Shown here in pieces: positions 15,676 to 64,000 of a stretch of DNA of 64,000 nt. This DNA is from Pseudovirgaria hyperparasitica. Lineage: Eukaryota. The stretch is taken from NCBI GenBank assembly GCA_010093815.1, contig ML996573.1; one strand, given 5' to 3'. How positions within the stretch are numbered: the first letter of the stretch is position 1; each line of letters begins with the position of its first letter. The notes beneath the pieces were generated by a model. The model ran no database searches. It saw only the letters and a program-made list of their open reading frames with translations, and was not told where the DNA came from. Position numbers and translations under genes: made by a program.

Positions 15676-15922
15676 AGCTACATTACACCTCTGAGATAAA
15701 TATGGCAATCATAGCACACATATCGAGTTGCTAAGTGAACTGTTCCGAGAATTAGCCGATCTGATCCATCCTATCCCGGCCTAGTTTATCAACACCAAAG
15801 CAATCCTACTACACTAATTCACGGCTCGTCATGACTCTTTCATCATTATCTATATTCAGACTTACACGTTTCTCTCCGCACATTTACAATCGTCACTCCG
15901 ATCTTCCTCCGCTCTCGAGGCC

Positions 15923-17491: not shown

Positions 17492-17629
17492 ATAATGTCT
17501 TACTGCAGCATAGCATATGGAGTTGGGATATGAATTTTGTTCACTTCTGCATTCAGCGAACAATTAGGAACATGGTAAGTTCAGCTAGCGATTGTGATCG
17601 CTTCGAATCTCATGATCGTTGGTCGGGAA

Positions 17630-19190: not shown

Positions 19191-19697
19191 ATGCACTCCC
19201 TCCTCCCCACAACCCTCCTCACCCTCCTCCTCCCCCTCTCCCACGCCACCACCCTCTCCATCCAAAACAACTGCCCCCACAAAATCGCCCTCCGCCCCGA
19301 CTCCCCCGCCTCCCAATCCTCCCCCGCCGACCCCATCCCCATCGAGACCAATGCCAACACCACCCTCACCCTCGACGACGCCCACCCCGGCAACGTCATC
19401 AAATTCACCAGCTCCACCTCCGACCCCAACAACTTCAACTTCAACCACCCCATCAACTTCGACTACACCGTCGCCGAAGGCATCATCTACTACGACGTCA
19501 GCGACGTGGCCACGAACACGCAGTTTCCGCAGTTCAGGCTCGCGGCGGCGGATAAGTGGCCCGGTCGGCCGGGGTCGTGTCCCGGGGTCGTGTGTCCGGA
19601 TCCGTGTAATGGGGCGGCTGGGTGTTCGGAGTCGGTGTGTAGGGCGGTGAAGGCGTGTGAGGTGGAGGGGATGGAGTTGGAGATTACTGCTTGTTAG
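19191..19697 (+). CDS. Small secreted cysteine-rich protein, BYS1/thaumatin-like
   Basis: 168 aa, signal peptide, N-terminal NNC, YYDVSDV motif, 8 Cys, ends in Cys. Confidence 0.75.
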   Translation: MHSLLPTTLLTLLLPLSHATTLSIQNNCPHKIALRPDSPASQSSPADPIPIETNANTTLTLDDAHPGNVIKFTSSTSDPNNFNFNHPINFDYTVAEGIIYYDVSDVATNTQFPQFRLAAADKWPGRPGSCPGVVCPDPCNGAAGCSESVCRAVKACEVEGMELEITAC

Positions 19698-38569: not shown

Positions 38570-38959
38570 GGCATCTTGGGATGATTAGGACCTTCCTGAA
38601 AGCGAGGCTGTGGAGATGACTTGGCGAGCTTGGTCCATGGATGATGAGGATGGATGGATGGTCTTTAAGGTCGATGTTGATATTCGTCGTTTGCCTAGAA
38701 CCTGACTCTCTTGGCATTCGGATGTCGCGCTATGTCTCCCCCACCCAAATTTACGTAAGACGGACATATTCTAGCATTTTATCGTATACTTATTACTATA
38801 TAAGGTCTAAATATATATATACTATCGAATATTAGTTAATATACTTAGTATTAAGTCTACACGTATTTTTTTTACCTATATACCCTTCTCTAGGTTAAAA
38901 AAACCCGCTTAAAGCGTTTAGTTTACGATAGACGCGTTAGTTAAATCTTCTCCTTCTTC

Positions 38960-39847
38960 TCCTCCTCCTCGTTAGTATAAATCTACTACTAAATTAGTAG
39001 AGGCTACTACTATAAGGGTAATAGCGAAGAAATAAGCTTATAAATATACCGCGGCGCTAAAAAAACCACGTGTTATTAACGTTTCGGCGCCTCCGGAGGC
39101 TATACCTACTCCTCTATCTATCTCTTTATCTCTATCTTCTTCTTCTTCTCCTTCTTCTCCTCTAGTAGATTCTATAGATAGTAAATAGAATAAGGTTATA
39201 GAAGATAAAGAGGAGATATATAAGATCTACGTATTCTAGATATTATATATTAATAGAAAGAATAAGATAGTAGATAAACTTACTACTATTCCGCGATATA
39301 TATTTAAATATAAGATATACGAGAGTATGATTAATAACTTAATTAGTATAAGACTTAGTACTAATAACTAGGCCTTTAATACTTACTAGATAGTATATAG
39401 CCTTAGTATAAGGAAGAAATAGCGGAGGACTCTTACTATTAATAACTAGTCGATTATTAGCTAGGAGAGAGTCTATATAGTTATAGATAAGATCTACTCG
39501 CTCGCTAATATAAAGGATAAGGTTATTATAATTACCTTTAAGGATAGCGTAAAGTGCGAGTCCTAGGGTAAGAAATCTCTTTAGTAACCTTAACGTACTC
39601 GTTACCATAACTCTTCTATACTATTACTAGATATAGAACTTTAAAGTTCGCTAAATATAGAGACTCTATTAAGAGGGCGTACCGCGATTATATATAATAA
39701 GGCTTAGTAGAGGAAGGAAGCTAGCCTAAAATAGATTAAGATAATTAGTATAATAGAGTTAACTTACTATTATACGGACGTTAGTTATACTAATAAGCGA
39801 GGCTACTATTTTATTATTCTATCCTTATCTAGTTACTACCTATCCTA
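38960..39847 (+). pseudogene. RIP-degraded ORF of unknown, probably transposon-associated, type, interrupted by LINE copy A
   Basis: Manual de-RIP gives an acidic tract, then a globular region ending W.C..KRG.C....S.H at the LINE 5' end. Confidence 0.35.
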
Positions 39848-42780: not shown

Positions 42781-42789
42781 AGGAAAGAT

Positions 42790-43340
42790 ACGGCGCTCCC
42801 AATGCTTCTAGGTCTCCCGGTACTTCTAAAGTTATCCCAAATGGGTCCCGGTACTTCTAGAGTTGTCCTAATCCTCCTAGAGTCGTCCCGGTACTTCTAG
42901 AGTTGTCCTAATCCTCCTGGAGTCGTCCTAGTCCTCCCGGAGTCGTTCTAGTTCTCCTAGAGCCGTCCCGGTTCTTTTAGAATCGTTCTATCGAACGTTA
43001 AGAAAACGTTTAATCCCGTTATATACCGGTATATATAGTAACGTCCTACTAAATGCCGGTATAGTATAGCGATACTACTTTATATTACGACTATACTTCG
43101 AGTATCTAGGAATATTCTATAATATACCGGCGGCGTATAGTATGTTAGAGTATGATCCTATTATATACCGGCATATATAGTAACGTCCTACTATATGCCG
43201 GCATATAATAGTAATGCTACTTTATACTACGACTATACTTTGAGTATCTAGGAATATTCTATAATATACCGGCGCATGTCGGAACATTCCGTTGTATGCC
43301 GGCATATATAGTAACGTCCTACTATATAACGGTATAGAAT
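42790..43340. repeat. Tandem repeat arrays (15/30-bp CCCGGTACTTCTAGAGTTGTCC-type units, then ~140-bp units)
   Basis: Directly visible duplications, e.g. 43020-43135 vs 43163-43275 vs 43293-43335. Confidence 0.75.
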
Positions 43341-43399
43341 AAATATCTTATTTCTCTTTACGTATAGATATATATAGATATATAATCACGAGTAAACAG

Positions 43400-46300
43400 C
43401 GGTTCGTATTTATACTACCATGCTATCTAGTCTCTTAGAAGCTAATTGACTAACTACCTTACTTACTTCTATGCTACTATATCTCTATGGGATTAAAGCA
43501 TACGCCTATTACTAGTATGTTAGGTATGGCTATCTCTACCGTAGCTGCATCTCCTTTTCCTAGGTCTAAGGCTTATATTCTTGTGCTTTCGATTACCTTA
43601 CCTAACGCGGTGAGTCTAGCCTCGACCTCTAAATAGTCTAAAATTAAAGTATACGCATATACTATAGGCCGATATTATCCATGGCGATAATGTCTTATAC
43701 TTGCCTACGGCCACGTCTCCTTGCGTAAGTATTAGTCTACTAATACTATAAAACCGGCGACTATTAGGTCTTATCCTTCGTAGACCTACGAAGCTAATAC
43801 TAGTAGAATACACGGAGAATCCGACTTGGTCGACCTAAATAATCTATATGCCTTGTTTGATTTGGACGTACTTAGGCCGGCTGGTAAATATACTAATATT
43901 TTCGCTTATGCATATGGACGTAGTACCTATATATATTAGTAAATTACGTTACTAGTAGGTAGTATAAACACTCACTAAGTATAGGAACATTAAGCTTACC
44001 GGTACGGTATATACGAGTACGATTTTCTCTAGGCGGTTGGCGGATATTCGTCGCGCGTGTCTAGTACTTTTATTATAAACGTTATTATTAATAAAGTTAC
44101 GGATCTAGTTTACCTTCGAAGCGTGTTTATTAGCTAGCGATACTATCTCCTTTCGCATGGCCTTATCTAGCTATAGGAGCGCTTCGCGTATGGGATTAGC
44201 GATTATCTTACTCGGTATACCATTATTACTATCCCTCCGACGCGTAAGCGTGATATTAATTTACTCGTCTTCTATCTTTTTATTAGTAAGGTATATAAGT
44301 GGTATATATATAGTAGCTAGCCTAGCCTAATAGTAGTATGCGTTAAGCCCGGACCCGGTACCCCCTTTCGATTTACTCTAGGCGGTAGATTATACCTACG
44401 AGTCCCGCGGCGTTCCGTTAGGCTATAGATTATTAAACTATCTACCTCTATTCTCGTATAACCGTACGATTATCTTCTCTAGTTCTATAGCCGGGACGGA
44501 TATAAACTCTACTACTAGCTTTAATATCGTAGATAGATATACCTCTCCGTTAAACCATTTGGTTAGTAGTCCCCGTTATAGGATGAATAGTAAATACCAA
44601 TCGGCTACCATACGTAGTGTGCGCTTACCTTCTATGGTTTCTAATGCCCTACGGACTATCGCGGCCATCGTGTCCGCCGACTTACCTTTTATTAAACTAA
44701 GGAGTTTATTCGACCACGTTATGATAATCTTCTTTATAGTTTTATTCTATAGGCTCTCGAATACTCTTTTAGTAGTATTATTATCGACGTAGTCGGGTAA
44801 CTTATCTAGAGCACCTGCCTCGATAGCCGCTAGAATATCTATTAGACTATTTAAGAGGGGCGTTATACTAACCTATATACTAAATATAAGGGTATTATAT
44901 ATCGTATATTTATACTATTTTATATCGGGGTTCTTTGCGGAATGGAACTCGTCTACTATTAATATACCGAGGAATACTACTTCGCGAGTTTAAGTGTTTT
45001 TAGTACTAAATTATTTCGCCCTCTTTACTCTTATAACCACGCGTCCCTTAAAAGATTTAAGATATTAGGGTTCTATACTCTAGACGGTACTATAGATTAT
45101 ATGGTTCTTTGCGTATCGCGACGGAAATTCGGTAGTGGCGGTCCTATTAACGGGAATTAACCATGCCCTAATAACACACTCCTCGTCGGTCTCGAATTTA
45201 GTAGTATTACTAATATCGACGCTATGTTTCTATTCGGGGTGTAGGCATCTCTTAGCTAAGTATTATCGGTCTATATATGAGAATTATCGGATACTAGGGG
45301 CGTCGGTAAGGGTTTTCGAGTACGCTAGCCGTACTATTATCTTTATCGGGTTCCGTTTATCGATTTAATCGGTGAATATACTATCCGTATCGTTATATAT
45401 CTGTTTAAAGCGCTGCGGCCAATGCGCTATTAGAAGGGACCTTAGATAGTATAGTATAAATGGTCCTTGAAGGCGGGGCATATAGACGAAATTATCGGTC
45501 TAGCTACACGGATATTTAATCGGATGTAGAGATTATATTAGGTACTTTCTATCCATGCCTGAGTCTTAAGTCGGTTATAGATGATTTCCTAGATTAAGTT
45601 CCATGTTATCGCGTAGAAAGTCCTAATAAAACGCGAGGCGGATAAACGTTATAAGCACGATTATCTTCCCTAGCCCTAGGCCATCTACTAAGATCTAGTA
45701 CTTCCACGGACCCGCCCGCTACTTGAATATAGTAACTACCGCGAGTAACTAGCCGGTCTATGGCCTATATAACCCACTTATACTAAAGGCTAGATATAGA
45801 GTGGGTATGTAGCCGAACTCCTTTATTAGGTCGTCTAGCGTAAGCCTAAATATACTTATAGTAAGTAACCGCATCTCTTCCGTATAATGAGAGATAGCTT
45901 AGACTACTTTATCGGAGTTATTAACGGCGAATATTCTATAGGTATATTAGTATGGTAGTGTATATTCCTACTTACTTCTTAGTATGACTTACGCTTCCTA
46001 TAGTTTCGTACTAATATCGTTATCTACCGGAATTAAGTCCTCTATATCTAGCTTTACTTCATCTCCGTTAGAGTCGTCGTCTATAGAAAGGATTTTAAAG
46101 TTAAGGCCGTTTACTAATATACTATCCGATGTATATCTACTATATAAATTATCTACTAACCCGAACAGTTCCTGGTTTTCACGTGTCTACCGGTTAATAT
46201 CTAGTAGTATAATATATTCTAGTTTTAGGCGTTTCGGAGAATCGACTAGGTTTACTATATTATCTAAGAGTATCCTCTTTATTTCTAGTAGCCGTAGGTA

Positions 46301-48100
46301 AGTCTCGCTAGTATCTAGAGGCACGACGGCATTCGTGGGGGAATTATCTATGTTAGTAATTATAGCCGCACCTATCTTTGATACTACTCTAATGTTAGTA
46401 TCTAGGACTATATATGTATATATGTGTCTAAGTATACTAGCTGCGTCGTCTTCTATTTTAGTATCTTCCACGTTCTCTTTCTCCGCATATTCCGGCGGTA
46501 ACTATAACTATATCTCTATGGCTAGTATGTTTACGCGTGGATGAGCTTCGCTAGGCACGACGATATTTATAGGTGGATTATCTATGTTAGTGGTTATAGC
46601 CGCACCTATCTTCGATACTACTCTAATGTTAGCATCTAGAACCATGTATATATATATATATCTAAGTATACTAGCTGCGTCGTCTTCCATTTTAGTATCT
46701 TCCACATTCTCTTTCTCCGTATGTTCCGGCGGTAANNNNNNNNNNNNNNNNNNNNNNNNNNNNNNNNNNNNNNNNNNNNNNNNNNNNNNNNNNNNNNNNN
46801 NNNNNNNNNNNNNNNNNNNNNNNNNNNNNNNNNNNNNNNNNNNNNNNNNNNNNNNNNNNNNNNNNGTATACTAGCTGCGTCGTCTTCCATTTTAGTATCT
46901 TCCACATTCTCTTTCTCCGTATGTTCCGGCGGTAACTATAACTATATCTCTATGGCTAGTATGTTTACGCGTGGATAAGCTTCGCTAGACACGACGATAT
47001 TCATAGGTGGATTATCTATGTTAGTAGTTATAGCCGCACCTGTCTTTAACACTACTCTAATGTTAGTATCTAGGACCATATATATATATATATGTCTGAG
47101 TATACTAGCTGCGTTATCTTCTATTTTAGTATCTTCCACGTTCTCTTTCTCCGCATGTTCCGGTAGTAACTATAACTATGTCTCTATAGCTGGTGTGTTT
47201 ACGCGTGGATGAGCTTCGCTAGGCACGACGATATTCGTAGGTGGATTATCTATATCGGTAGTTATAGCCGCACCTATCTTCGATACTACTCTGATATTAG
47301 TATCTAGGACTATATATATATATATATATCTAAGTATACTAGCTACGTCGTCTTCTATTTTAGTATCTTCTATATTCTCTTTCTCCGCATGTTCCGGCGG
47401 TAACTATAACTATATCTCTATAGCTAGTATATTTACGCGTGGATGAGCTTCGCTAGGCACGACAACATTCATAGATAGATTATCTATGTCGGTGGTTATA
47501 ACCGCGCCTGTATTCGATACTACTCCGATGATGTTAGTATCTAGGACCGTGTGTATATATATGTGTCTAAGTATACTAGCTACGTCGTCTTCCATTTTAG
47601 TATCTTCTATATTATCTTTCTCCTTATATTCTAGCGGTAACTATATCTACGTACCTATGCCTATAGTATCTATGTCTAGTTTAGCCTCTATTATATCTAT
47701 GGTCGTAACCGTCGGTACTAACTTACTATTTATAGCCGCGATATACTAATTGAATTCTCTAGTAACGGTTTCCTTAACTATCCTATAGAGTATAGTAGTG
47801 TCTATACTACTAGTTTTAAGCTCTATCACCACTTCTTTACTTACTATCTTAATAATGGCAGCCCTATATATATTATAACTTATTTTAGGTATTAGGTATG
47901 GGCCTCGGAGGTACTAGATATAAGGTAGAAGGGCGCTAACGCTTAAGGCCTCCGTACGTCGTATATGCGTGTTACGGTTAGCTATTCTATAGCCGGTAGT
48001 TAAACTAGGATAGTCGTGACTCTCGTTATACCTATCTATTCCTATATACGACTTAGGCCATAGGTAGTAAGACGGCGTTAATGGCGATAAGATATGAAAA
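43400..48100 (-). pseudogene. RIP-degraded SNF2-family helicase
   Basis: Minus-strand IL(A)DGLGLGK(T) at ~45665-45695, ILIVDEFHSAKNP at ~44928-44967, (A)TPLLN at ~44850-44870; ends approximate. Confidence 0.75.
46310..47645. repeat. 234-bp tandem repeat (at least 5 units) with an assembly gap at 46736-46865
   Basis: GCACGAC anchor recurs near 46321, 46554, 46988, 47222 and 47456, i.e. ~234-bp spacing outside the gap. Confidence 0.9.
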
Positions 48101-48229
48101 CTAGATTTAGGCGGTGGGAGTTAAGTCGCTACGTTTAGCGATTATAACGTAATTTCGATAAGTATGGAGGAAGTGAAGTATATAAGTGAATGTTTAATTA
48201 TTAGAGTGGATCTTATATAATTATAGTCA

Positions 48230-49650
48230 TAGTAATAATATAGCTAGTAGAACCGGGCGTATCCCGACGTGAACTAGGTAGATACCGGCTTATACTAGTA
48301 TTGTAACGTCTTAACCGAACATGTGCGCCATAGTTATATAGCTAGTAGAATCGGGCATATACTAATATATAGTAGGTAGAAGCCGTCTTACGTCGGATTA
48401 TATCGCCTTAGCTAAGCACGTACGCTACTCTTACTACCTCTAGTACCCTTTTTATTATTCTATTAGTCTTCGAAAGCGATATCTATATCCTCTATATCTA
48501 AGGTGCTTTTAAGGCTTTTAAAGTCACTATCTTTAGAGCTTATAGGTCGGTCTCGCAACTTCCCGGATGCCGATAGTAGTGTGTATAGTGTCGCTAGAGA
48601 AAGGGTTAAGTCGTTTAGGTGATACTATCTACTACCTATAATACCATCTCCGTGGGTATCTCTACCGTCGTAGGTAGTAGCTTTCTATTACTATTATTAT
48701 ACTAATCGTAGCGAGTATAGTATTAGGGACGGAGGGGCGGATTTATTCGAGCGTAACCTATATATAGCCGTCTATGCTATCATGTGTTAGTCGCTGGTTT
48801 ATATTTCATTTTACTTTGGGTATACTATCTATATCCTATCTAAGGCTAAGGAGTATTATACTATTACTATATTCTAGGATATATTCGATTACTAACTATA
48901 GAAGCTATCTAATATCTACCTCTAGTTCCGTTTTACTTATTATATACTCGACTACTAGTACGATAGAATATATGGTAGTACGGCTCTAGTTAAGTGCCCT
49001 CCTAGTCTTCGTTACGTATTAGACTCTAATTCGCCGTATAAATACTACCGAATTAATACACGAAGCGTCGCTATGGTCTTTCCACTAGTTAGACGTGGAT
49101 ACTAGTATTTCGAGGAATACGTTGTTGTTGAACCTAATTATAAATTTGATTTTTCTTATAGTATATACGTTAGTAGGCTATGGGACCGCTATAAGTATAG
49201 GCTATGAGGTCGTGGTATACGAGAGCTATAAGGTCGTGATAGATGGGGGTTATAAGGTCGCGATAGGCGGAGGTTATAAGGTCGTGATAGGCGGGGATTA
49301 TAAGGTCGTGGGATATAGGGCTATAATTATACGCCTCTTCTTATACTCGGAGATAGTTTTTCTATAATGTATAGTTTTCTATACTATAGTGCGTACCTAG
49401 TCGTAGATATGGTATAGCGCCTTCATCTCTATATACTCTACTACTCTTTTCTATACTACTAGGAATTCGCCCGCTACCTTATTAATAATCTCACGTACTC
49501 TTTTTACGCCGAGCTCGTTCTTAGTTCGACGCCTATGGTCTACGAGTAGAGTAGCCGTATATACTTCTATATATAGCTGCCTTATACGCGCCTCCATAGC
49601 TTCACGCTTTACTTATATATCTAGGCTTAAGATGCGAAGTAGTACTATGG
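48230..49650 (-). pseudogene. RIP-degraded ORF of unknown function
   Basis: De-RIP frame ..KREAMEARMRQLY..RRRTKNELGVKRVREII..; includes a 21-bp tandem repeat at 49190-49320. Confidence 0.35.
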
Positions 49651-52214
49651 TAATTACTATATTCGGACGGTTACTTTATTATAGAATCGGATTCGATATA
49701 TTAATCGTGTGTAGTTAACGTACGTAGTTAATATAGTGTTTATAATTTACGGACTAATTATATCGTATATATATGGTATATCGTAGGTGCGAGGAAGACG
49801 GAGGTATAGATCGAATAATAGAGGTAGAAGCCGGAATAACGAGGCACCTACCAGGTGAACCTCGTTTATATCCTTGTTATTCCTCGAACACGCGTTTATA
49901 ACACGCACGTGACTTAGCGTGGCGTGGTTAGGCGTGTGGTTATTTACTTTATATCGTCTAATACCCTTAATAGAATTGGATAGCCATGATTCGTATCTCG
50001 TAATATTATATCGTAGGCGACTACGTCTAGAACGGCATATGGCCACGTATATACGAGGTACCGCGTTAGTCTTATCCCATTTTATATTCATATACTTATC
50101 CCTAGGTACTCTCCGAGTATCGTAAGCCTATATTTCGTCGTATTCGAGTGTCGTATCCTTCTATGCTTTTAAAGTACGCGATATTTGGGTTTACTATATC
50201 CCGTATATATTATAGTTAAAGTCTAAAGGTAGAGGCTTTGATTAGGGCGTATGTTTTTTTATATTTTCTCTTTAGATAGTAATATCTCCTAATATAAAGG
50301 CTAGAAGTAGTTTTAAAAGTATGAAGGGGACAACTAAAGGAAGCCTACGTTATTAGGCCGGGGCTTACGGTAGATATAGAATCGTGTTTATTTCTTAATC
50401 GGTAGGTACTAGTTAACGTGCCTAGTGGCGCCGTATTATCTAATAGCGCGTCCATACTAGAGTAGATATAATAGAAATACCCTTAATGGGTCTTTAATAG
50501 AGCTAAACTATCTACCTAGTAGGATATCGTGACTATAACTAAAATAGATACAGAGGTGTACTTACTAAGAAGCCGTGACTAAGTAGCCCTAACACGTGAG
50601 TCTAATCGTATACTATTACTAATTGACTTCTATGTCTTTATATATCGTAATACCGCCGTCTCGGCCGGCATCCTCGTAGTCTCCATCGTTCTAGCCGCTA
50701 GTAGTTACTTTATTAGTAGTATTAGCTCTAGTAGTATTAGTTCTAGTAGTATTAGTTCTAGTGGCATTAGCTCTAGTAGTATTAGCTCTAGTAGCATTAA
50801 CTAGATTATTACCATTTATGCGTGCTGGTAATTTAGTACGGCTAGGATAATAACGCCGAGTATAACCGGTAGTCCTATAATTATAGTAAAATGTACCCGT
50901 AAGCGTCTTGGGTTTAGGGTAAACATTAGCTTTATAGCCGATGTCCTAATAGTTATTACATGTAAGTGTCGACCCTCTTAGATACTTAATAGACTTATGT
51001 CCTTCGACGTTATATTTATAGTAGACTAGCGGCTTACGGGGCTTAGTACTATTAGTAGTTTATTAATCGCTTTATTCTCCCCTCTCTCTAATACTAAGTA
51101 TAGGGCGACTATATTAGGGATTAGGTATGTTAGAGAGTAGAGGGAGGCCATCTAGGTCGGGGGTCGTGCACGTGTATATCGCATGAATCTTAGAGTACTT
51201 ATTCTATATCTTGCCGAGTACGCCGTCTAGGACTTTCTACCTCTTAAGAGATATAAAGTTAGCGATAATAACTATTATCTATTTAGCGCGCGTGATAGTA
51301 ATGATATTACGGTTTACTTCCGAGAGGAAGCCGAAGCGATTGGTTTAGACCGGGTCGATAAGGACTATATTATTATTATAACCCTAAGAACCGTCCTATA
51401 AACGCTATTAGACAAGCTTCTATACCGGCTTGGGTAGGGTATTAAATTAAGCTTTATCCGCTGCGGCAAGTATAGTTAGAAGCGAGTTTCTAACTATCCC
51501 TTTAAACAGATTACGTTAGGCGGCGTATATAGAAATATAGAGTACGCGATCGAGTGCGACGCTATAATAGAAGAGCTCGGTAATAATCTACTAAGTGAAA
51601 CGTAATAAGTCTATATTATATATTAAGTTATTCACCGTGTGCGCGTAATCCCCGTTAATGTTAGTGTATACGACGTGTCAATGGCCGCGGATTCCAAATA
51701 TTTATCGAACGGTCTCTACGAGTGGTATATTAATATTATTCGTCATACGGGGCGAGGTCGTTAGCTCGCCCGAGTAAGTAATTAGCGATATAACGTTTAT
51801 TATCCTAGGAACTAAGCGTTCTAACTTGGTAAGGCGAGTGGTCGGGAAACTATATTATATCTAGCGCTTTATAAAGGAGATCCTCTGGTTCGCGGCCTAT
51901 ATATTAGTACTATCACGCTAGTAGGTGTCGAGCTAGCGTGGGTCGCCGACGTAAATAAATGTCGGTTACTATTCCATAGTAGTGTAATTAACGATAATCC
52001 CGAGTGTATTACTTTTAAGGATACGCGTAGCCTCTTCTATTACGACTAAAATCGGATATATATTACGGGCTACCTTGGCGATATTTATAATATATGGGGT
52101 CCCTACATAAATCTAGGCGTGGATAGTAACTAGGTCCTAGGTAGCGAGGTATAGCTCGTTTATCCTATTATGCTCCTCCTTAGGCATGTCCTTATTACGA
52201 GCGTAACGTTTATA

Positions 52215-55200
52215 ATAATAATAATAATAATATTATATAACTAGGTAGAGTAGTACTCTATAGGCCTATGCCTCCTCTAGTCTAAGCCACTATGTAAGAA
52301 GAAACCCCATAGGGAAAAACTTCCTTATATCTGTAACTACATCTCGTTAAGCCTCTGTTTCGTCTTAAGTATATAGCTATAGGGTACGCCTATTAGCCTA
52401 TAGCCTATATTACCGTTATTTTACCCTTAGGTAGCACGTGTAGGTGCGGAGGTTATTAGTTAAGGGCTGCCCTTAACTAATAATCGGGGTTCTCCCGGGG
52501 TTCTTCCGGTATATATCGGGTTGCTACCGGCGTGTACCGGGTCTCTTCCGGCATATATTTCCGGGTCTACTAGAATTAGAGAAGTGGTAGGTGTGTAATC
52601 ATCCACCGGGCGACATCCTTAGGGTACTCATTAAGCCATCGTATGATATCGGAGGTTCTTGTCGTATAGATGAGCTTCTGCCTTTACATGTAAAGATCGG
52701 GGCACATTACGAGATAGTGGTGTATTATACCTCTCCGGCCGCACGCCTTATACTATAGAGACACGTTAGGGACGCCTCTCTTATAGAGGTAGTATAGAAG
52801 TCCTATGGCGCCCGTTCGGGCTTAGAGGAGTATAGATGCCTAGGCCTTTATAAGCCCTTTATATATCTATTTACTTAGCTCCTTCTATGGTCCTCGGATC
52901 TACTCTAGGTACCTATCCTACTAGGAGGCCCACTAGGCCCGGAGTATCTCTTTCTACTTATCTTAGATCCACGACCGTATGCTTCGTCCGAGCTCTCGAA
53001 GGCTCTATTAGTCTAGAAGGGTATCTAGGTTATCCTTAATCTCTTATGCTACTTAGTTCGAGTCTATTTCTATCGGGCACTTATACCGTAGTCGAGTCCG
53101 GCCTATATATAAGAGTACTTAGTAGTATACGCTAACTCGCGCGCGTAGCGCGGCGAAGGTATAGTCTACTTTTTCTATACGTTCCTATACTTGTTATTTA
53201 GTAAAGTATGCCACCCTCTATATCTAGTAGAAGTCATGTATACTTATGACGTCTATCTCGCGTCGTAGTAGCACCGTGTTAGTAGCTTTATATACGCCTA
53301 ATATGAGACGGAGTATACGGTTCTATATAGATTCGAGTTTCATTCGCCTAGTCTATATAAGGGCCATGTACTAGCACTCGTGTCCGTACGTGAAGGCGGG
53401 TCGTACTATAGATATATATAGTTAGCGTGCCTTATCCCGGGTGGTTCCCTACATGGAGGCTGTAATCCGTCGTATAGCGGCTTCTACCTAGAGGGCCCTG
53501 GAAACGGCGTATGCTACCTATGGTCCCCATTTAAGCTTGTTATCGATCATGACGCCGAGTACGCGTATGCTTTGTATCGGTGGTTCGTTGAAGGCGTCTA
53601 TTCTAGGGCGTCGCTCGCCTTCCCTAGTGGCCTATTTCCCACGGCGGTTAATAAAGTGCATGAGTTAGTACTTTTCGGGGGCGAACTTTACTCCGTGGCG
53701 CTTTGCCCATTAGACGTATCTCCCGTGGTCTTATTCGAGTCGTCTACATGTTTAGCTAGTGTTATTATTAATAGCTAGAAGGTATGTGTCGTCTACGTAC
53801 CCTACTACCTCTATGCGTTATATTCTCTAGAGGAGGTCTATAGTAAAGAAGAGGAATAGGATTAGGGAGATGGTACTTCCTTATGGGATGCCGTAAGCCG
53901 TCTTCTTGTACTCACTTCGATATCTGGGGATATATATCTAGGTAACTCTTTCGGCGAGGAAGGACTATATGAACCGCGTAATCTACGCGGGTATACGCCT
54001 CTTCCGTAAGTTATGGATGAGTCTCGTGTAGTTTACTTTGTTGAATACGCCGGCCATGTTAAGGGAGAGTAGCGTTACTACACGTCCCTGCTTCTATGCG
54101 GTCTAGATGACTTCGAGGATGTGTTAGATAGCGGTAATTAGGGAGCTTCTAGCCTTCGCCTTCTGGTTTACTAGGAGGAGGTTATATTCCTATGCTGCGG
54201 CGCTTATCTTCTTCGCGATTATAGTCTCTAGTATCTTCCCGAGATAGGAGAGGAGGGCGATTAGTCTCTATCCTTTCGGGGAGTTAGAGTTCTTCCCTGG
54301 TTTCGGGAGTATAACGGTATAGACGGCCCGGAAGCTTTAGGGGTGGTATCCGTTCTTAATATATACTTAAAATATATAACTAATAAGTGGTAGGGTAGCT
54401 AGTATAGTGCGTTTAAGGCACCTATTCGGTATCCTATCTAGTCCGGGTACCTTGTCATTCGGGAGTACTTTAACGGCGTCGAGTATATCCTCCTCGGTGA
54501 CCTCTTAGGGGATATTAATTACGTCTAGGTATTTAGTATTATTAATATCTAATAGGTCTACTAGCTCCGGGAGGGGGAATATAACTTTACGTAAGATCTC
54601 CGTCTTCTCCGGGCTTATGGAGTATATCCTCTCTTAGTGTATTAGGGGAGGCATTAGTAGCGGCGGTGTCGGCGCGTCTACACCCTTGGCCCACTTTACT
54701 ATACGCTATAGCCCTACGGCTTACCGTGTGTGTTTATCGGTGATCGTGCGCTATTACTTTCGTCGTTTATTATAGAGGGCCCTATTACGATGTCGCACTA
54801 CTTCCTTCTACTCTTCCCATGCCTTAGTCGTCCGGATATAGTATACACGTGTATATAGTCTACGGGCGTCTCTTCTATACTCTCGCATTTAAGGTATGCC
54901 CCTCGCTTCTAGGGGTCTATACGTTCGGTATAGCACGTGTTTATCTCTCGTAACTTGGTATGCTTGAAGGAGGACTTGCACGGCCTTATCTATGGCTGGG
55001 CCGTTGGATACGTCGACTATAGAGGGGTCTAGAATCGCCGATTCTAGGTCCTCTAGGTATTTATCCTAATCGGTGTCCTTCTATAGCTATTTCCTATGTT
55101 ATTTATTAAGAGTGGAGACGTCTATTACGGTTTCCATGCATTCGTGGTCGGAGTCCGTCTATATCCGGCTCGGGCGGTAGTACTATACTCTATGGCTAAT

Positions 55201-57528
55201 GTACTCGGTAGCGAGGGTAAGGTCGAGCGTAGACCCGTCCTCGTCCTATTTATGTTTCCTCTAGGTGATCTACCCCACGGGTATAAGGAGGTATAGGAAG
55301 TCGTGGTACCGTGTATGTAGTTCCCTTACTCTAAGTTCTTCTCTCGCGACGGCTGGGCCTCCCTACCATCTATGGTGGAGATTAAAGTCGCCTAGGAGGA
55401 TGTGTTATCCCGGCGTCGTGGTGCCCTCTAGTATATCGTCTAGTGTAAGCGATCGCTATTAATTATAGATATTATGGATATGGATAGGCCCTATGCTTAT
55501 CTAGAGATGTAGCGTTATCTAGAGGTTATTATGTTCGGTATAAGACCATTCTAAGAGCGGGATCGACTTATATATATAAAACATAACTCTCCTATCCGGG
55601 CCCGTGGGGTGGATGGTATAGTATCCTAGGTGTGTTATTAGCTTATTAGTTTAGTAGTGTTTATATAGTTCCTGGATGGCTATTATTGCGGCTCCTGTCT
55701 CTTCTAGGAGCGTCGCTTGGTTTTCTCGTTTATATTATACGTTCGCCTATATGATGATAAGTGTATCTTATGCCCTTATTAGGTGCTAGGGAAAGTTCGA
55801 GTCTATATATTAGTAGCGCTAAGGCGTGATTATCCTTGCGCGGTGGCGGCTTTAAGTATACCCCGGGGTCGGCCTATCTTTCTCTATATAGTATACTATT
55901 ACGCGTTATCCTCTCCCCTTCGGGGGGTGGTTACCGGATTCATAAGTAAAGTTAGGGATGGCGGCGAGGGTAGCGAGGGCCTTATGGCTTAGTGTATCCA
56001 CCTCGCTCCTCTTATCTTCATCGTGTTAATATATTCTACGATCTACTTACGTTTCGTGCATGTTACCGACTAGAATAGGTGTTTCCTATCGTAGTTAGAG
56101 TACTTGGCGGTGTCCCTATCTCGCGTCTCGTCGCTCTGCGTCTTATGAGGGCATTCCTTAGTATTATGGCCCTATTTATACTACCCATAGGCGGTCTTCT
56201 AAGAGCACCTCTACCTAGTGTGCCTATATCCCTAATAGTTGAAGCATTGCGTCATTACCTATGCCCTATCCCATGGTTCCGCCGTGAGTAGCTCTCCTTC
56301 GGCTAGGAAGCCCTCCTACGTTATTCTATAGGCGAGAGCGGGGTCCCTAAGCTCTACTATTATAGTAGAGTGCTTTTTCGATTTTATCTTAATCCCTTAG
56401 ACGTTCTTCTACCACGTCTTCGCGATCTTAATCCTAGGGTACTTTAGTTTATTAGATCGCTCTATTCGCTCGATATTATCTTCTCCGATGACGTGTCCTC
56501 GGATAGAGACGGTATGTACCTATATCGGGTATATGGTTACGCGGACGGACGCGCTGGGGAAGATATTATTAATCGCGTTCGGGTCGCGCGAGATAGTCTA
56601 CTAGGCTGTATTAGTAGTAGTAGTTAGTACTATACCTTCTAGGGTGAGTTTGGCGGCCACTATATTTAACCACATCCCTTTCTATTCGTTAATCTTATTT
56701 ATAATGTCCTTTAGGGACGCTTATTAGACTTATGCGAGTACTTCTTTATCCTAGATAGCGACTTATATACTATATGCCCCGTCCGTAGGTGCCCTTGGTG
56801 TTTTAGCTAACATGGCTGTTCCGCTTATGGGTGCGGCGACCTATGCCCACGTGCTAGGGCGTTTTCCCTAGGTGAGGCCCTCCTAGATCCTCTATAGGCT
56901 GGCCTCTATACGATCTAGTCTGGATTCCGGGTCTAATTCCGGCGCCTGTTTTACTCCTACGGTAAGCTCTCTAATATTCTAGATAAGGTTCCGGAAGATA
57001 CTAAGGAGGGCCGTTTCTCCCTTCTTAACTTCCCTCTCTATACGTGCTACCTAGTAGTTAATCTTATCCGGGAGGGTCTCCCCGGGTAGGGTCCCCTCCG
57101 TCTCTATTATCTATAGCGTTATACGCCCTTAGTTGTTTGTTATTTATTAGACGGGGGTTTAATCATTCTAGGATATGCCGCTATATAGCCGTTTCTACCG
57201 TACTAGTGTTAGGGGTATACCCGGTGGAAGCCGGGGTACGTCGGTGCCTAAGGCCGCTATGATTATTAGTTAAGGGCAGCCCTTAACTAATAAAAGGGGG
57301 TCGGCGTGTCGGCGTTTATTAGATGTAGTCTATACTCGTGTTATCGAAGAGTCTTCGAGCGTATATATATAGTGTCTCTACACGTCGGTATCGTCGCGTA
57401 TTATACGCTATACGTACGCACGTGTGTTAGAGGTTGTTATACTCGGTGTGCTCTATCGTTTAATGTATGTAAATCGCTGTTTTGCCCCGAATTAACCAGT
57501 TTGGTCCGTTGGGGTGTGAGAAGTTTTT
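52215..57528 (-). mobile_element. Full-length Tad1-like LINE copy B (ORF1 with CCHC; ORF2 APE-RT-zinc finger), RIP-inactivated
   Basis: QCFNC.G.GH...C ~56210-56260; LLGDFNLHH ~55375-55400; GIP(Q)GSTISPILF ~53855-53895; YVDD ~53790; C..C....H....C ~52705-52755; (ATT)n tail ~52215-52232; 15-bp TSD AGCGTAACGTTTATA at 52200-52214 and 57529-57543. Confidence 0.93.
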
Positions 57529-60119
57529 AGCGTAACGTTTATAGATAACGTGTAATGGCTAAGCCGTTTCTTTCTCGAAATTCTTGGGGATCCATTTATA
57601 TTAGTATCAAGATTTAACGAGTCTAACGACCTCGAGTATAACGTAACCGGTATATAGTTTCTATAGATAAGCACGGGGATCCGTACTATATTCCGATGGT
57701 CGTTTACTATAGTCGGCCTAGACTTACGCGAGGATGGTACCGCCTATTATATCGTTCTAGGTTAGCCCGATAAGAGGGTCGCCGCGATGAGATAGTCTAG
57801 CTATAGTAAAGAAAACCTCTTAATTAACGGCTTCGGGGTATCTTCGAAGAACGACCGGTGTCTTTAGAGACTTATAGCGAGTAAATATATTACTTATATA
57901 TTTATATGCTTTTCTTATAGCGTCGTCGTAGGTTTCGTTAGTTGGGCCGATAATAATATATATATATATCCTATATGTTTAGGTGGAACCTAGCGTAGGG
58001 AGATGCGCTATCACATCGCTAGATAGGATGACTACCTTAGTAGTATAAGCGATAATAGAAGCACCGTTCATTTCGTTAATTAGAAGTATAGCTAGTAGTA
58101 GATAAAGCCATAAATAGCTCTTCCTAGCTCCTCCATAGCCGTGAAGTAGGAACTAAGCCCTAAGTGCGTCTATTGCCTATATATAGGTATACCATTATTA
58201 GGGAGATAGCTCTAAACGTATGATATCCTAGAGATCGTGGAATCTTTTATAATCTTTAATGTAGCGGTTATAGTTAACGGGTTAAAGATTCAGGTAGTTA
58301 TTACTAAGTATTAGGTCCTATACGGAGGGTAGTAAAGGGGATAGGATACTAGAGTGGACTTTAGATGATATTAGGAGTATGTATATATCGGCGACAGGGC
58401 TAGTAATGGAACCTTCGTCGCTAATAACATCGTAACTATGTTCTATATTTATATCCTTATTATTATCTAGGGATATGGATAATTTAGAAAGAGTAATAAG
58501 GGTATTCTAAGGCTCCGTACTATAATCTAGAATCTTGTCGTTAGGGTTAGGGGACCTATATATTAGAGATATAGATACTAAGTCCACGATAACATTAAGG
58601 ACTATCGTATTAAACGCATCCTAAGCGGCGTGGTCGTCTACGCCGCCGTCTCTAGAAGCTTATACGGCGTGGTAGGTTAGTTTCTAGCACGTATTAATGC
58701 GTTACTTAGTAAGCTTATCATAGGTTTATACGCTAACTAAAGCCGGAACGTCCGTGAACCCTATAAGCGTAGTAAGGGACGACCCGATCGTACTTAAACT
58801 AGTATCGCTAGTCCGAATGAAATGTTTAGGACGAGCTCAAGTTACATTAGTAACCGCATCCATTAATATAATCGGTACCTTAGGTGCTTTAGGAGGACGC
58901 CTAACCTTATCGAAGACTTTTAGAGCGAGGCATTCGAATAGGAGGACGCCTAGACGAAATCGAAGGACTTTAAAGCGGTACGCGTCGTTATTATAATCCT
59001 TTGAATCTACTTTAAGGTACCCACGACTACCTGGTTCTATACGATAGAATCCTTTCGCATTAATAGGATAGACGATAGCTAAGAGCGCCCGAGTAACATC
59101 TAAGAGCTAGATATACCTAATAGTAACGTCTTAGAATTAGGATAATAGAAGATCCGTCTATTCGTCTTATAAGGTACTTATAGCGATATATATTAGGTAG
59201 TTAAATTTCTTATTAAATGACTCGCGGTAGGGAATAGAGATCTAGGGCTAAGTGTCCGGCCTACTTATTATACCGTATTATATATAGGGAGTAGTAACTC
59301 CTACATGCCATGAATTAATTAGATCGCTCTCTAGTTTAAGCTTATTATTAAAGCTGGTAAGATCCATAGGGTCACGTAGCGGTAGCAAGATATGAACTAT
59401 AGTATAAGCACCTAGATCTTCGAAGAATTACTTCACTCGTTTATATATTATATCGGGTCCGACATACGACGGGATGGTAAAACCTATACCGAGAAGCTCG
59501 CTAGCTATAAGTTCGATAACCTAAAAGTCGCGAGGGTCTTCGTAGAGGCCGGTGTTAATATATAGTATATTAGCTTTATCCGCTTTGCTTATAATGAGAT
59601 TAGGAAGTTTAGGAAAATACTTGATGAAGTCGTCTACTTACTTAACCTTAAAGATCTATACCATAGGGTGGTCGGATAATAGGAGGATGTTAGTACGATT
59701 AAAGCGGAGTAAGCTTATTAAGGATACCGATTTCCCTTCGTTAATCTATCGGAAGCGAGTATATAACTTAATCTAAGAGCGGTACTTAGGGAATTCAAGG
59801 AATCTATATGTATAACTAATCGACTCTTTAAAGCCGTGACCTTTACCACGAGCCTTAAATACTACTAGCTTAAGCTCGGCTTAAGTTTTCGCTTATTCCT
59901 ACTTAAGTCTATCTATTTCTCTACTAATACCATAGACATTCCTAAAGGTTAACTATAGATCGCCCTATATAAGAGAGATCTAATAGGTAGCGTAAGTAGG
60001 AACGGGAGCCTTACTACTTTAGACCTTCTTAAGTTCATACTCGTCGTTAGGACGGTAGTTACCGGTAAGTATACTAAAGACGAGTGGTTTATTATCGGTC
60101 GAGATAGTAGTCGTATTAT

Positions 60120-60415
60120 AAGCTTCGACTTAAGCGTAAGGCTCGGCTTAAACGTAAGGCTCGGCTTAAACGTAAGGCTCGGCTTAAACATAAGGATCGG
60201 CTTAAACGTAAGGATCGGCTTAAGCGTAAGGCTCGGCTTAAACGTAAGGATCGGCTTAAGCGTGAGGCTCGACTTAAACGTAAGGCTCGGCTTAAACGTG
60301 AGGCTCGACTTAAACATAAGACTCGGCTTAAACGTAAGGCTCGACTTAAGTGTAAGGCTCGACTTAAACGTAAGACTCGACTTAAACGTAAGACTCGGCT
60401 TAAACGTAAGGCTTA
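60120..60415. repeat. 18-bp minisatellite (about 16 units), coding repeat in the helicase relic
   Basis: CTCGGCTTAAACGTAAGG units; minus strand de-RIPs to (PHVQAE)n. Confidence 0.9.
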
Positions 60416-63400
60416 ATTACGTCGAGCGTAGACTGGTCCTAAATATCGCCGAATGTAACGAGTTCTTGATCCATATTATGAACTATAAATATAACCTCGT
60501 TAACTATTATATAGAATAGACCTTAAGGGTTAATAGAGTCGAGTTCGACGTAGTATTCGTATATAGTCGTGATTAACACGGAATAAAGTATAGAAGGTAA
60601 GATTTAGGTTTAAAAACCAAGATAAGTAGAGGAAAGGTTTATAGAAGTTTTCTTTTATAACATAGGGACGACCAAAGGAAGCTAAGATTAACGTAGGCTA
60701 AAGTAATAGTAGCTTAAGTAGTATATAAAGTGGGGTAGTATACTACTATTATATAAGTCTAGTAGCTCGCCGACCGAGTATATAGTACGTTATAGAAGGC
60801 TATCGAATCGGGGCTTAGGTAAATATAGGTATAAGTAAATAGTATTATATGAAAGTTCAACCGTCTAACACACTAACGCCATAGACACCGAGTCTATCTC
60901 CTAAATTCTACGGTAACTATCTCTTCTAGGTAGTGAGATATTACTAGCCATGCCTTACCTATTCTATTTATGGTAGAGACACTATATATCCGTTAGCATA
61001 CTAGCGCACGTGTCTAACTACCGCTTAAATATAACTTGCCTTATACTATAATACGTACTATCGAGCCGATGTTATACCGATATTTATAGGTTCGTGTCTA
61101 TAAACTCCTCTCCCGTAATATCGAAACCGGTAATATTATCTAGCGATAGGACTACATAAGAAGGAGGCGGACTTAGTATATCTAGTTATATATAGACTTC
61201 TACTATCGCCTTAATAACTACTACGCCGGTAGACGCTTCCTCCCTAGCCCTAAATGGTATATAATATTGGACTTTTACACGTTCGCTCGAACTCTCGAGC
61301 GTACCGGCATTATATATCGATTCGTAAGGCGATTAGGTTATAATCGCTAGCATGTTAATATCGACGGGTAGAGTAGGCGGGACGGCGGCGCTCGACTCTC
61401 CTAATATAACGTTAGCTGGCTAATAATATAATAGGTAAATATACTAGTCGCGTCGTTATTAACGTCTATCGTTTAAGTAGGTAAAGCGTTAACTACGCCT
61501 ATATCGAGTGGACTAGGGCGTATCTATATACTATTAACGAAAGACCTAAATCTAGTAAGGTATCCGCTATATATATGATACTATACGTAACTAATAACCG
61601 AAAACCTAAGATATATAAATGGTGTTATGTCCACGGAAGAGCGACGGCATTATACTAGTATATACTAGATATGCCGGCATATATCGGTATACACCGCTTA
61701 GTAGTCGTAATATATCGATATATGCCGATATCTATCGGCGTATATATATCTTAAGCTTACCTACGCACGCTAGACGGATGAATCCCGCTACTATACTTAT
61801 AGCGCGACGTTTCTATATGGTTAGATTATAGTTAACACGTTATAGTAGGCTTCTAAATATACCGTTTATATCGCCTACGCGGAAAACCACCCGATCTAGT
61901 CCTAAGCCTAGTGCCTATTTAATAGCCTACTATAATACCTAGTCTAAACTATCCTTACGAAGGATTATATTACTTAACTCGCTCGGTAGAATCGGGTACT
62001 CTAGGTAGACGCGACTATACCTATAACCGCCTACGTCCCCTAGTGTATCTATAGATAAGCTAATAAATTCTAATAGTTTATTTATACTAAGACCTGCTAT
62101 ATCGCGTATTTTTATACCCTTAATATTTAATAGCGTCGTGCTATTCTACATGGCCGTTATTAGTACTAGGGTAACCCGAGTATAATCGCGGATAAGGACT
62201 ATAGGTATACATATATAACACGGCGGCACGGCTACCTTAGGAGATATAGATACTAGTAGTCCGACGGTCGAATAACTAGGTTAGCTAGATATATTAGGCG
62301 GGTTTATAGGGTATATATAATATCACGACGGCTCGTCTAGCCTGGGGTATCGTTTTAACGTATATGATAGTATTTAGCCAACCGCCGCCAGTTACGCGTA
62401 AATACTAAGAATATAGTATTAAGTTAACACATGGCATCTACCCGTGAAATAGTATAACTACTATTAATGAATATATATTTATCCGCGACCGTCTATAGGT
62501 AACGCTCTCGTTTTATATGGTGGTCCTTTACTTCCTTACTACGTAGGTTTAGTAATAGGCTAGTAAATTCCTCCTAAATCAACTCTTCTATGTATACCCG
62601 AAGTTTCTACCTATCAGACGCTCTGAATATATGAAGTAGGTCGAGACTCGCTTCTACTCGGCTATTTATTCGCGGCTGGCCGGACGTAGCCATAGGTAGA
62701 CGGAATAGGGAATAGTATATATTACTAGGGTAATAGAGAGACGAGATATATATACTATATAATAGGCGTAGGTATAACACGTACGTTACGGCTACATTAA
62801 CGCGAGTAGTCCGCATGGTTTTTGGTAATAACTCGTTAATTTAATGGAGGCGGGGAAATATACGGCCGGTATCCGATCCCGTACTAATATAGGGCACGTG
62901 AAATAACGACGTTAAATATATAATACTCTATATATAACGTTAAGTTTACCGGGCGATAGCCCTACTCCGGTAATACTATCTATATATAATAAAAGAGTAG
63001 CGTAGTATATAGACACGATAGGATAGTAGACCGTCTTTATAACTACGTGGATCTACCGCTAAAGAGAAATACTATAAGATCTAGTATATACTATTATAAA
63101 TATACTATTATCTATTATATTCAGGTATGCTAACTCGGCGTACGCGAAATATAGATAACCGCTAACCCGTTATAGTTCGCTATCGTTCGAAGCCTAACGA
63201 GTAGAACCAAGGAATAAATAGTAGAAATAGTTAGATATAAGAGTTTTTAGCGATTAGGGGATAGTCTAGGTAGCTTAAGGGAAGGATAGAGGACCTCCGC
63301 GAAGCATATACTCATACGATATTAATATACGAATATTTAAGAGAAGTACGTAATACTAACTATCATCTCTATAATAGGTCGTTATCGATTAGTACTATCG

Positions 63401-63674
63401 TTAAGAAGAGATAGACGAGCGTGACGACGAATAATCGTAGTAGCGAACCCTTATATTAAACACGAATAATACGACGCATTAGTACGGTATATTTATCTAT
63501 TACGAGAACGTATATCTAGTTACCGTAGTTTCTAACAGTCTATATAAGAACGCATACATTGATAATACAGCGATATAAGTCTAACTACACTTATAAGGCT
63601 AGGGAAAGAATAAAGAAAGAGGAGGAGAAATATTAGGAGGGGGAGATACTTAAGGAAGACGTTTCCCTGGTAAG

Positions 63675-63810
63675 AGCGTTATATACCCGGTATATACTTA
63701 TTCACACTTATTTACATAGACTCGTTATATACCCGGCACTTATTCATTAACAGACTCGTCACGTACCTAATACTTACTTAACCATAGACTCGTTATATAC
63801 CCGACATCTA
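63675..63810. repeat. Degenerate ~35-45-bp tandem repeat
   Basis: AGACTCGTTATATACCCG-type unit occurs 3-4 times. Confidence 0.6.
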
Positions 63811-64000
63811 ACGAGGCATAAACGCGAATAACGAAAACATTAGGATCGGGTACGAGCTAGGTCTAGTAGGCCTAGAGACATAGTTCGGATTTTAGGGTAT
63901 TAATGTATATAATCTATCTATATTAGGTTAATGCTATCTACGTCTGGTTCTACCCGTAAATAAGGATCCTTTAAGTTCTATATGCCCCTTTTAGAGGCGT

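Follow-up and report, generated by a model that had tools for sequence, protein, structure and literature searches.

What was the AT-rich, gene-poor DNA that fills the right-hand part of a 64,000-nucleotide stretch (the window) of contig ML996573.1 of Pseudovirgaria hyperparasitica (assembly GCA_010093815.1), before it decayed by repeat-induced point mutation (RIP)? A first-pass annotation, made from the sequence alone, had read positions 42,781-64,000 as the remains of a multi-gene mobile element of more than 21 kb, carrying both an SNF2 and a UPF1-like helicase. Our analysis puts a probability of roughly 55% on the reading that these positions hold a single, dead copy of a long repeat unit, which covers at least 15.9 kb in the window once an inserted long interspersed nuclear element (LINE) is subtracted, and that the unit is an extinct, once-mobile element. 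We favor former mobility because the unit has a discrete end that is found in two contexts, a cut LINE at its flank, and an even contig depth along its length. The multi-gene repeat of the earlier proposal is thus retained, but not its full length, as 5.3 of the 21.2 kb are a LINE insertion.

The known end of the unit lies at 42,781, where a first LINE (LINE A) breaks off. Comparison of the window with itself by BLAST aligned 39,849-42,762 (plus strand) with 57,528-54,596 (minus strand) of a second LINE (LINE B) at 68.7% identity over 2,974 bases, the sole long internal match, and a transition-tolerant (RIP-aware) alignment extended the likeness of LINE A to LINE B up to 42,780. The boundary of 42,781 given in the first-pass annotation is therefore correct to the base or nearly so. 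The endonuclease relic of LINE A is weak (Exo_endo_phos_2, E = 0.001, ~41,876-42,223). Contigs of two public runs (X1 and X2), which stem from one sample and one study of the same organism and carry 62 and 54%, respectively, of the sampled words of 47,000-52,200, hold the same end at a second locus. In both runs, a contig resembles the window as far as 44,992, a point within the SNF2 relic, and then passes via CATT into the sequence from 42,781 onward; the depth of this joint (262 and 207) is single-copy-like. CATT also occupies 42,777-42,780 of the window. Since the window's left flank is unlike 44,850-45,000, the joint belongs to another locus. The end of the unit's tail thus abuts two unrelated flanks, namely LINE A, broken off mid-gene, and the interior of another copy, which is the pattern of nested insertion.

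Mapping of the contigs to 42,781-62,780 at a threshold of at least 80% likeness, at which copies under 80% are invisible, placed 22,260 (X1) and 11,155 (X2) pieces. By likeness, the X1 pieces fall into 6,084 at ≥99%, 6,807 at 95-99%, 7,160 at 90-95%, and 2,209 at <90%, and 1,166 of the 1,186 variable places in X1 (98%) are transitions (C>T 357, G>A 505, T>C 163, A>G 141). At the 24 sites outside LINE B that are among the best supported 40 of ~1,300 variable sites, 6-23 distinct contigs were found per site in X1; depth at these sites was 4,165-23,027 (median ~11,800) in X1 and 1,340-11,772 (median ~4,500) in X2. For the contigs with unique joints and the longest pieces, depth was ~150-660 (median ~255), and for the unique-joint contigs by themselves it was ~150-380 (median ~258). 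Quantification of the mean binned summed depth to the left and right of LINE B gave 20,458 ± 3,844 and 22,557 ± 4,426 in X1, and 9,167 and 10,126 in X2; summed depth was even over 42.8-52.1 and 57.5-62.8 kb, and a sharp difference was seen in the LINE only. The helicase relics and the rest of the non-LINE DNA are multicopy: the number of contigs per variable site, the near-uniform depth and the predominance of transitions all agree with the multi-copy genes that had been postulated. These values suggest copy equivalents on the order of 5-90, i.e., tens of diverged copies, with the reservation that summed contig depth is not copy number and that X1 and X2 differ twofold though taken from one sample. 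This sample is possibly the source of the window's assembly, so that one organism is represented and the contigs are not independent support.

Both gene relics of the unit lie on the minus strand. The first, a helicase gene, is present in two parts on either side of LINE B. In its C-terminal part, the frame 52,130-50,802 matched AAA_12 with E = 2e-8 and 34.5 bits (profile positions 17-193 of 195), which lies above the Pfam gathering score of 27; AAA_12 is the C-terminal RecA-like domain of UPF1-like superfamily 1 (SF1) helicases. The best solved relative in a search of the PDB was a ZNFX1 chain (9q9z_A, E = 6.8e-5), followed by DNA2 (E = 0.072). When phmmer was run exhaustively against 1.84 billion representatives, 55 matches were returned at E ≤ 0.001, one of which fell below 1e-10 (1e-18, 28% identity). 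The eight helicase matches that were scanned for domains all carry AAA_11 and AAA_12, and the ninth scanned match, P0005, is a repeat protein that aligns to the zinc-knuckle region alone. The closest fungal-looking matches (P0004, P0022, P0006, and P0059, the source name of the last being a hypothetical protein of Diplodia seriata) form one family with 27-41% mutual identity, and a hidden Markov model (HMM) of this family matched the relic at 1.8e-28. Right after the core, and in the helicase frame, three CCHC knuckles of C-X2-C-X4-H-X4-C spacing lie within 59 codons; the pattern was made RIP-tolerant by allowing C->Y and H->Y. Over the six frames of the whole window it matched five times, three of these being the helicase cluster, and a cluster of three was seen in 0 of 200 shuffles; Pfam reported no zf-CCHC match at these knuckles. 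Together, the AAA_12 match above the cut-off and the clustered knuckles uphold the SF1 helicase with zinc knuckles that had been described before. As judged from its sequence, the gene would originally have had about 1,330 codons and encoded a helicase of the UPF1/ZNFX1 kind ending in three CCHC knuckles.

The stretch at 57.5-60.1 kb, which had been taken for a further separate open reading frame (ORF), is the front of this helicase gene, which LINE B has split in two. This reading is based chiefly on a target-site duplication and a continuous frame. The duplication, AAACGTTACGCT, is perfect over 12 bases (57,540-57,529 and 52,211-52,200; 15 bp with the preceding TAT), and on the minus strand it directly precedes the first base of LINE B and directly follows its tail; the frame across LINE B reads K-R-Y-A over the duplication on both sides. 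LINE B shows what marks a LINE insertion, that is, an endonuclease (Exo_endo_phos_2, E = 5.8e-9), a reverse transcriptase (RT; RVT_1, E = 8.6e-17; both by Pfam), a 3' tail, and a target-site duplication. From 27 of the 55 matches (length 800-1,700 residues; P0003 and P0005 excluded) we built an HMM, whose positions 478-601 aligned to 57,957-57,601 and 615-1026 to 52,217-50,697, i.e., the two halves are collinear and nearly abut. The C-terminal match to this model is circular because the 27 matches were picked via that C-terminal part; the match of the N-terminal half is free of this circularity, yet weak, at 4.7 bits and E = 9e-4 among six frames. When the N-terminal half was compared with the 55 matches using phmmer, P0029 was found over the same motif with E = 1.1e-4. 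In this half, where AAA_11 (the N-terminal domain with Walker A and motif Ia) would be expected, neither Pfam nor the PDB gave a match, and the Walker-A-like GYGGARKS was read by eye. On the plus strand of this relic, an exact TTAGGGTTAGGG at 58,541-58,552, read as P-N-P-N on the coding strand and accompanied by one near match elsewhere in the window, is within chance.

The LINEs themselves yielded further observations. Summed depth over LINE B was 36,000-227,000 in X1, and at its 3' end (52.1-53.5 kb) summed depth was 4-5 times that of the LINE body, which fits many 5'-truncated copies. A joint in another copy connects 57,528 to 59,269 with six letters between, so that the LINE 5' end there apparently lies 1.7 kb farther upstream within the helicase gene and points the same way; this would reflect either a repeated entry of the LINE into the repeat or a deletion in that copy. 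In LINE A, the RIP-tolerant CCHC knuckle pattern matched at 41,118 (plus frame), at the place expected for the knuckle of a LINE ORF1.

The second gene relic of the unit is probably SNF2-like, as judged from a sub-threshold Pfam match and three motifs. The consensus of motifs I, II, and III in SNF2 proteins is GLGKT, DExHxxKN, and TGTPxQN, respectively, and the relic reads GLGKI (45,676), DEFHSAKN (44,953), and TPLLN (44,863), in one frame, collinear and at rough SNF2 spacing. The GLGKI and DEFHSAKN patterns each occur once in the six-frame window and the trio in 0 of 300 shuffles, in a test that was post hoc. Pfam reported no Helicase_C lobe in this relic at E ≤ 10. A word-based search of 5.8 billion proteins, which covered lengths of 467-1,488, left 0 of 8,000 scored candidates at E ≤ 0.001, and the fold of the core predicted by AlphaFold with no alignment was uninformative (mean predicted local distance difference test score, pLDDT, 32.7). 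Upstream of this core, a tandem array (46,319-47,663; period 234 with 87% matches in Tandem Repeats Finder, TRF) continues straight into the relic in the same frame. This array probably extended the SNF2 gene at its N-terminus, and the gene may have had ~1,500 codons with 78-residue repeats. Stop counts are suggestive only: the array frame has 12 stops per 428 codons, and since one antisense frame is nearly as open (15 per 427), stop density is no proof that the array is coding. We rejected low stop density as a sign of coding altogether, as antisense frames are equally stop-poor as true frames. A run of 130 N within the array indicates a scaffolded draft assembly there, so that the unit number is a minimum and the frame across the gap putative.

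Next, we describe the decay of the unit. The marks of RIP are present: TpA is in excess, CpA/TpG is depleted, and copies differ by transitions. All 2-kb bins between 38 and 64 kb have a TA/AT of 1.5-1.75 and a (CA+TG)/(AC+GT) of 0.15-0.55, compared to 0.4-0.9 and 1.0-1.4 in the earlier bins. By feature, GC is 0.38-0.40 in the relics, 0.38 in LINE A, and 0.455 in LINE B; the relics are RIPped like LINE A and are more AT-rich than LINE B. These indices, per bin and per feature, bear out that the relics are as saturated by RIP as the LINEs. Among the 112 in-frame stops across the three relic frames (850, 864, and 443 codons), 109 are TAA or TAG and three are TGA, and none of the frames contains a frameshift, which fits a decay via C-to-T and G-to-A changes and not via insertions or deletions. 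Today, this copy has no role beyond belonging to an AT-rich, gene-poor block.

The features of the unit and its LINEs are collected in Table 1. In the tail, the repeat arrays that had been noticed after LINE A are confirmed as a 40-bp array of 3.4 units at 42,845-42,981 (TRF) and a ~142-bp direct repeat at 43,013-43,341 (self-BLAST). A 12-base palindrome, TATGCCGGCATA, together with its RIP variants, has six of its ten window matches in the tail (43,022-43,336) and could be a candidate binding-site motif of the element. It recurs at 61,670-61,691 as one exact and one near match, and we rejected it as a marker of the second end since these two matches at 61.67 kb are too few. The two stretches with no assigned gene (48,151-50,696 and 60,414-64,000) gave nothing in Pfam at E ≤ 1 (minus strand) or E ≤ 0.1 (plus strand), and neither contains a stop-poor frame. 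In 60,414-64,000, stops number 7-10 per 100 codons in each of the six frames, and no further ORF is recognized there, as no frame is poorer in stops than the others and Pfam has no match. Depth at 60,790-62,780 resembles that of the rest of the unit.

Table 1. Features of the RIP-saturated right-hand part of the window (positions of the 64,000-nucleotide stretch).
Feature	Positions	Strand	Details
LINE A	39,849-42,780	+	5' 2.9 kb of a LINE, ends after endonuclease domain; left flank of the repeat unit
3' tail of repeat unit	42,781-43,642	-	0.86 kb, apparently non-coding, subterminal repeats; unit end at 42,781 ± 4-7 bases
Probable SNF2-like ATPase core relic	43,643-46,192	-	One frame of 850 codons with 40 stops, each TAA or TAG
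234-bp (78-codon) tandem array and ~0.5 kb upstream	46,319-48,150	-	At least 5 units; N gap at 46,736-46,865; TRF, self-BLAST
RIPped stretch between the two genes	48,151-50,696		24/48-bp array at 49,203-49,326; depth as high as elsewhere
Helicase, C-terminal part	50,697-52,211	-	Motifs II-VI; three CCHC knuckles at 51,023-50,847; 15-bp (5-codon) array at 50,698-50,799
LINE B	52,212-57,528	-	Full-length LINE within the helicase gene, (TTA)n-like 3' tail; RVT_1 and Exo_endo_phos_2
Helicase, N-terminal two thirds	57,529-60,123	-	864 codons in one frame, 44 stops; Walker-A-like GYGGARKS, motif Ia-like IIIGPTNETYDD
18-bp tandem array, 16 units	60,125-60,413		TRF 88% matches; self-BLAST
RIPped DNA with no recognized gene	60,414-64,000		Leaves the window; multicopy to at least 62,780

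The DNA to the left is of a different character. The window as a whole has a fungal character. Up to ~38.5 kb, GC is 0.45-0.58 with normal dinucleotide ratios; from ~38.75 kb to the end of the window, GC is 0.35-0.46 and the DNA is RIP-saturated. The onset is abrupt, the switch falling between 38,500 and 39,000 (within ~0.5 kb). Between the normal sequence and the 5' end of LINE A (38,500-39,848) lies ~1.1 kb of RIPped DNA with no Pfam match. The ordinary-looking genes of the left part code for MFS and OPT transporters, kinases, a PDDEXK_12 nuclease, a glycosyltransferase-like protein, an acyltransferase, and a radical SAM protein. The open frame that matches PDDEXK_12 strongly (E = 7e-57; 16,694-17,491, plus strand) is situated between kinase-like fragments, and directly before it is a 291-codon open frame with no family (15,818-16,693).

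On the reading that the unit was once mobile, its history might have run as follows. Read along the minus strand, an intact unit would have consisted of the helicase gene, ~2.5 kb of further DNA, the SNF2-like ATPase gene, and the tail that ends at 42,781. The unit would have spread, and one copy would have entered LINE A, whose 3' half should lie past the far end. Subsequently, LINE B would have retrotransposed into the helicase gene. RIP would then have struck the whole unit, as expected of a unit that was repeated, turning both genes into pseudogenes through C-to-T and G-to-A changes alone. The two motor proteins may have served as accessory proteins of the unit, one as an unwinder with chaperone-like knuckles and the other as a DNA translocase, roles proposed from the families to which they belong. 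The mobilizing enzyme, if there was any, would be encoded outside the window.

On the minus strand, domain scans spanned the frames of 42-64 kb (E ≤ 0.01, relaxed to E ≤ 1 in the stretches with no assigned gene); on the plus strand they spanned those of 42.8-52.2 and 57.4-64 kb (E ≤ 0.1), and 38.5-42.8 kb was scanned in all six frames. In agreement with the first-pass annotation, which had recognized no transposase or tyrosine recombinase, the scanned frames contained none, nor a Rep, an integrase, or a non-LINE RT. DUF3435, the tyrosine recombinase ("captain") that Starships carry at one end, had no match in the scanned frames of the window, the far end of the unit lying beyond it. Starships also have boundary repeats and a target site at both ends, and the window covers one end of the unit. 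Helitron_like_N and PIF1 likewise had no match, the helicase being of the AAA_12 kind, and a Rad6-like ubiquitin-conjugating enzyme (UQ_con) had none in the scanned frames and could sit beyond 64 kb.

Several observations weigh against a mobile unit with these two genes. The lack of a mobilizing enzyme in the scanned frames is one of them, though RIP reduces the sensitivity of such scans and the result is weak either way. One unit end alone falls within the window; self-BLAST matched the 42.8-43.4 kb tail to nothing farther along, whether inverted or direct, and no partner in the form of a terminal inverted repeat or long terminal repeat was found. The evidence for the second flank is a single joint, which can be placed only to within 4-7 bases, since both contexts share CATT as well as the TA in front of it. 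Contig counts per site were taken from the best supported sites, and depth had to stand in for copies. In other copies, no contig connects the SNF2 with the helicase part, the contigs being short, and equal depth is only indirect evidence for one unit. Nor did we see a contig joining 52.2 to 57.5 kb; the missing joint is by itself no evidence, but with no copy seen to have an uninterrupted helicase, the LINE is possibly part of the amplified DNA, which would favor passive duplication. As to the genes, motifs I-III of the SNF2 helicase named in the first-pass annotation are in place and collinear, but its Pfam score is below the cut-off (SNF2-rel_dom, the only family at E ≤ 10: E = 0.0042, 16.7 bits compared to 24.9, residues 165-455), and four other libraries (PDB, NCBIfam, PADLOC, and PHROGs) contained no SNF2 match. 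The best helicase matches are 26-28% identical, no close intact relative was found for either gene in these searches, and a CCHC domain is listed for none of 110 relatives of P0004.

The reading that survives best beside a mobile element, possible but on balance unlikely, is that a host gene cluster was passively amplified by segmental, tandem, or subtelomeric duplication, as are yeast Y' and telomere-linked helicase repeats, was later RIPped, and never moved by itself. A precedent exists in Parastagonospora (Stagonospora) nodorum, where the repeats X3 and R8 were merged into a 26-kb repeat, X3X3R8, and were read by the authors as an "endogenous gene cluster" with Rad5/SNF2-like helicase genes (Hane and Oliver, 2010; PMC3017866). 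Subtelomeric helicase-bearing repeats are described in Colletotrichum higginsianum (bioRxiv 10.1101/721753). Passive amplification is further consistent with the lack of a mobilizing enzyme in the scanned frames and with a LINE-free helicase junction being present in no contig. Copied blocks, however, would not be expected to place the end at 42,781 against two unrelated flanks, which is the pattern of insertion. Moreover, there is no telomere array in the window (a two-unit probe with at most one mismatch matched twice, a count that 6 of 100 shuffles reach), and no RecQ domain was found. On balance, we infer that the unit once moved as an element and was not a gene cluster multiplied passively.

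A bolder form of the mobile reading, which we regard as doubtful, is that the unit represents an undescribed class of large fungal mobile element whose own gene set comprises an SF1 RNA/DNA helicase with gag-like CCHC knuckles and an SNF2 translocase, with no known transposase, recombinase, Rep, or RT module, and which reached tens of copies before RIP; X3X3R8 would then be a fellow member misread as host genes.

Fungal AT-rich RIP blocks are commonly mosaics of nested elements, and two LINE copies are present in this one. The SNF2 relic, the helicase relic, and the other stretches might thus derive from at least two repeat families that have no relation to each other and lie side by side, and it is in keeping with such a graveyard that no contig links the parts in other copies. 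We consider this improbable, given that summed depth is even on both sides of LINE B, that the helicase and SNF2 genes are co-oriented, and that no further similarity break, target duplication, or terminal structure was seen between the two genes.

The first-pass annotation had also offered a Starship-like giant element, in which the two genes would be cargo or accessory genes and a DUF3435 tyrosine recombinase would lie beyond 64 kb. A size above 16 kb and one end outside the window would be in line with this, and the flank at the known end, TTAC before ATTAGG, bears a resemblance to the TTAC target of one Starship family. Starships typically number one to a few per genome, far below the tens of copies found here, and we know of no described Starship accessory set made up of a helicase and an SNF2 protein. 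With no recombinase in the scanned frames either, and no such SNF2/helicase cargo in the portions of the literature that our search returned, we did not keep the cargo proposal and rate it as very improbable. That single-copy host genes were ruined by RIP leaking from the neighboring LINEs is hardly credible: RIP is able to spread into unique DNA alongside, but it halts within ~0.5 kb at the left border (38.5-39.0 kb), whereas 9 kb and 6.5 kb are saturated here, and thousands of diverged contig pieces lie over these genes.

A once-mobile unit of this kind can be set beside several known systems. Helitrons are likewise high-copy eukaryotic elements that encode an SF1 helicase. Their helicases are Pif1-like and fused to a Rep (HUH) nuclease, whereas the window helicase is an AAA_12 protein of the UPF1 kind with no Rep, Helitron_like_N, or PIF1 match. 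Starships, the giant elements of Pezizomycotina, are likewise large multi-gene units in filamentous ascomycetes that RIP can affect; they differ in their defining DUF3435 protein, not found in the scanned frames, and in copy number, the window unit being present in tens of copies. The subtelomeric helicase repeats (yeast Y', telomere-linked RecQ, and those of C. higginsianum) are, like the window unit, multicopy and built around a very large helicase gene. The helicases of these repeats are RecQ-type or otherwise unlike the helicase described here, which is of the UPF1/ZNFX1-like SF1 type, and the window unit has no telomere array and a known end inside a LINE. The C. higginsianum elements measure 11 and 18 kb, and one of their genes combines helicase, chromo, OrsD, and zinc-knuckle domains, the last in common with our relic (bioRxiv 10.1101/721753). 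Helicase and SNF2 domains are also on record in fusions between host genes and transposable elements, which do not amount to such a unit as far as the excerpts of that source extend (PMC10799480). Within the literature returned by our search, seen in part, an SF1-CCHC helicase and an SNF2 gene were not found described as one repeated unit.

At the level of single proteins, ZNFX1 and the family of P0004, P0022, P0006, and P0059 share the helicase core with the relic, at 24-28% identity, and differ in that the ~650 N-terminal codons of the relic match nothing. SEN1 is another UPF1-like SF1 helicase. In P. nodorum, the X3 repeat is 9,364 bp long, has 213 copies, and makes up 1.24% of the assembly, and its de-RIPped consensus gave a weak SEN1 helicase match (E = 0.28; PMC3017866). 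The name X3X3R8 occurs in that paper only, among the literature searched.

Repeats that resemble host DNA-repair gene clusters are a visible share of some RIP-rich fungal genomes, and their mobility is unsettled. What the present locus adds is a defined end against two different flanks, the pairing of an SF1 helicase with CCHC knuckles and an SNF2-like ATPase, not found described as a unit, and a proposed order of events in which the unit would have entered a LINE, a LINE would have entered the unit, and RIP would have followed. If intact relatives are lacking, the locus adds a further extinct repeat to an AT-rich block and is of local interest only; if it is true that intact relatives exist in fungi that lack RIP, they would reveal what moves such units. 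The closest counterpart remains X3X3R8. X3X3R8 has a Rad6-like ubiquitin-conjugating enzyme gene, a domain with no match in the scanned frames of the window unit, and the available description does not mention the CCHC knuckles and 78-codon repeats of the window unit. Both are long, multi-gene, RIP-affected repeats of filamentous ascomycetes with SNF2-like helicase genes and uncharacterized ORFs, and the window unit is of the same kind as X3X3R8 and possibly of the same family.

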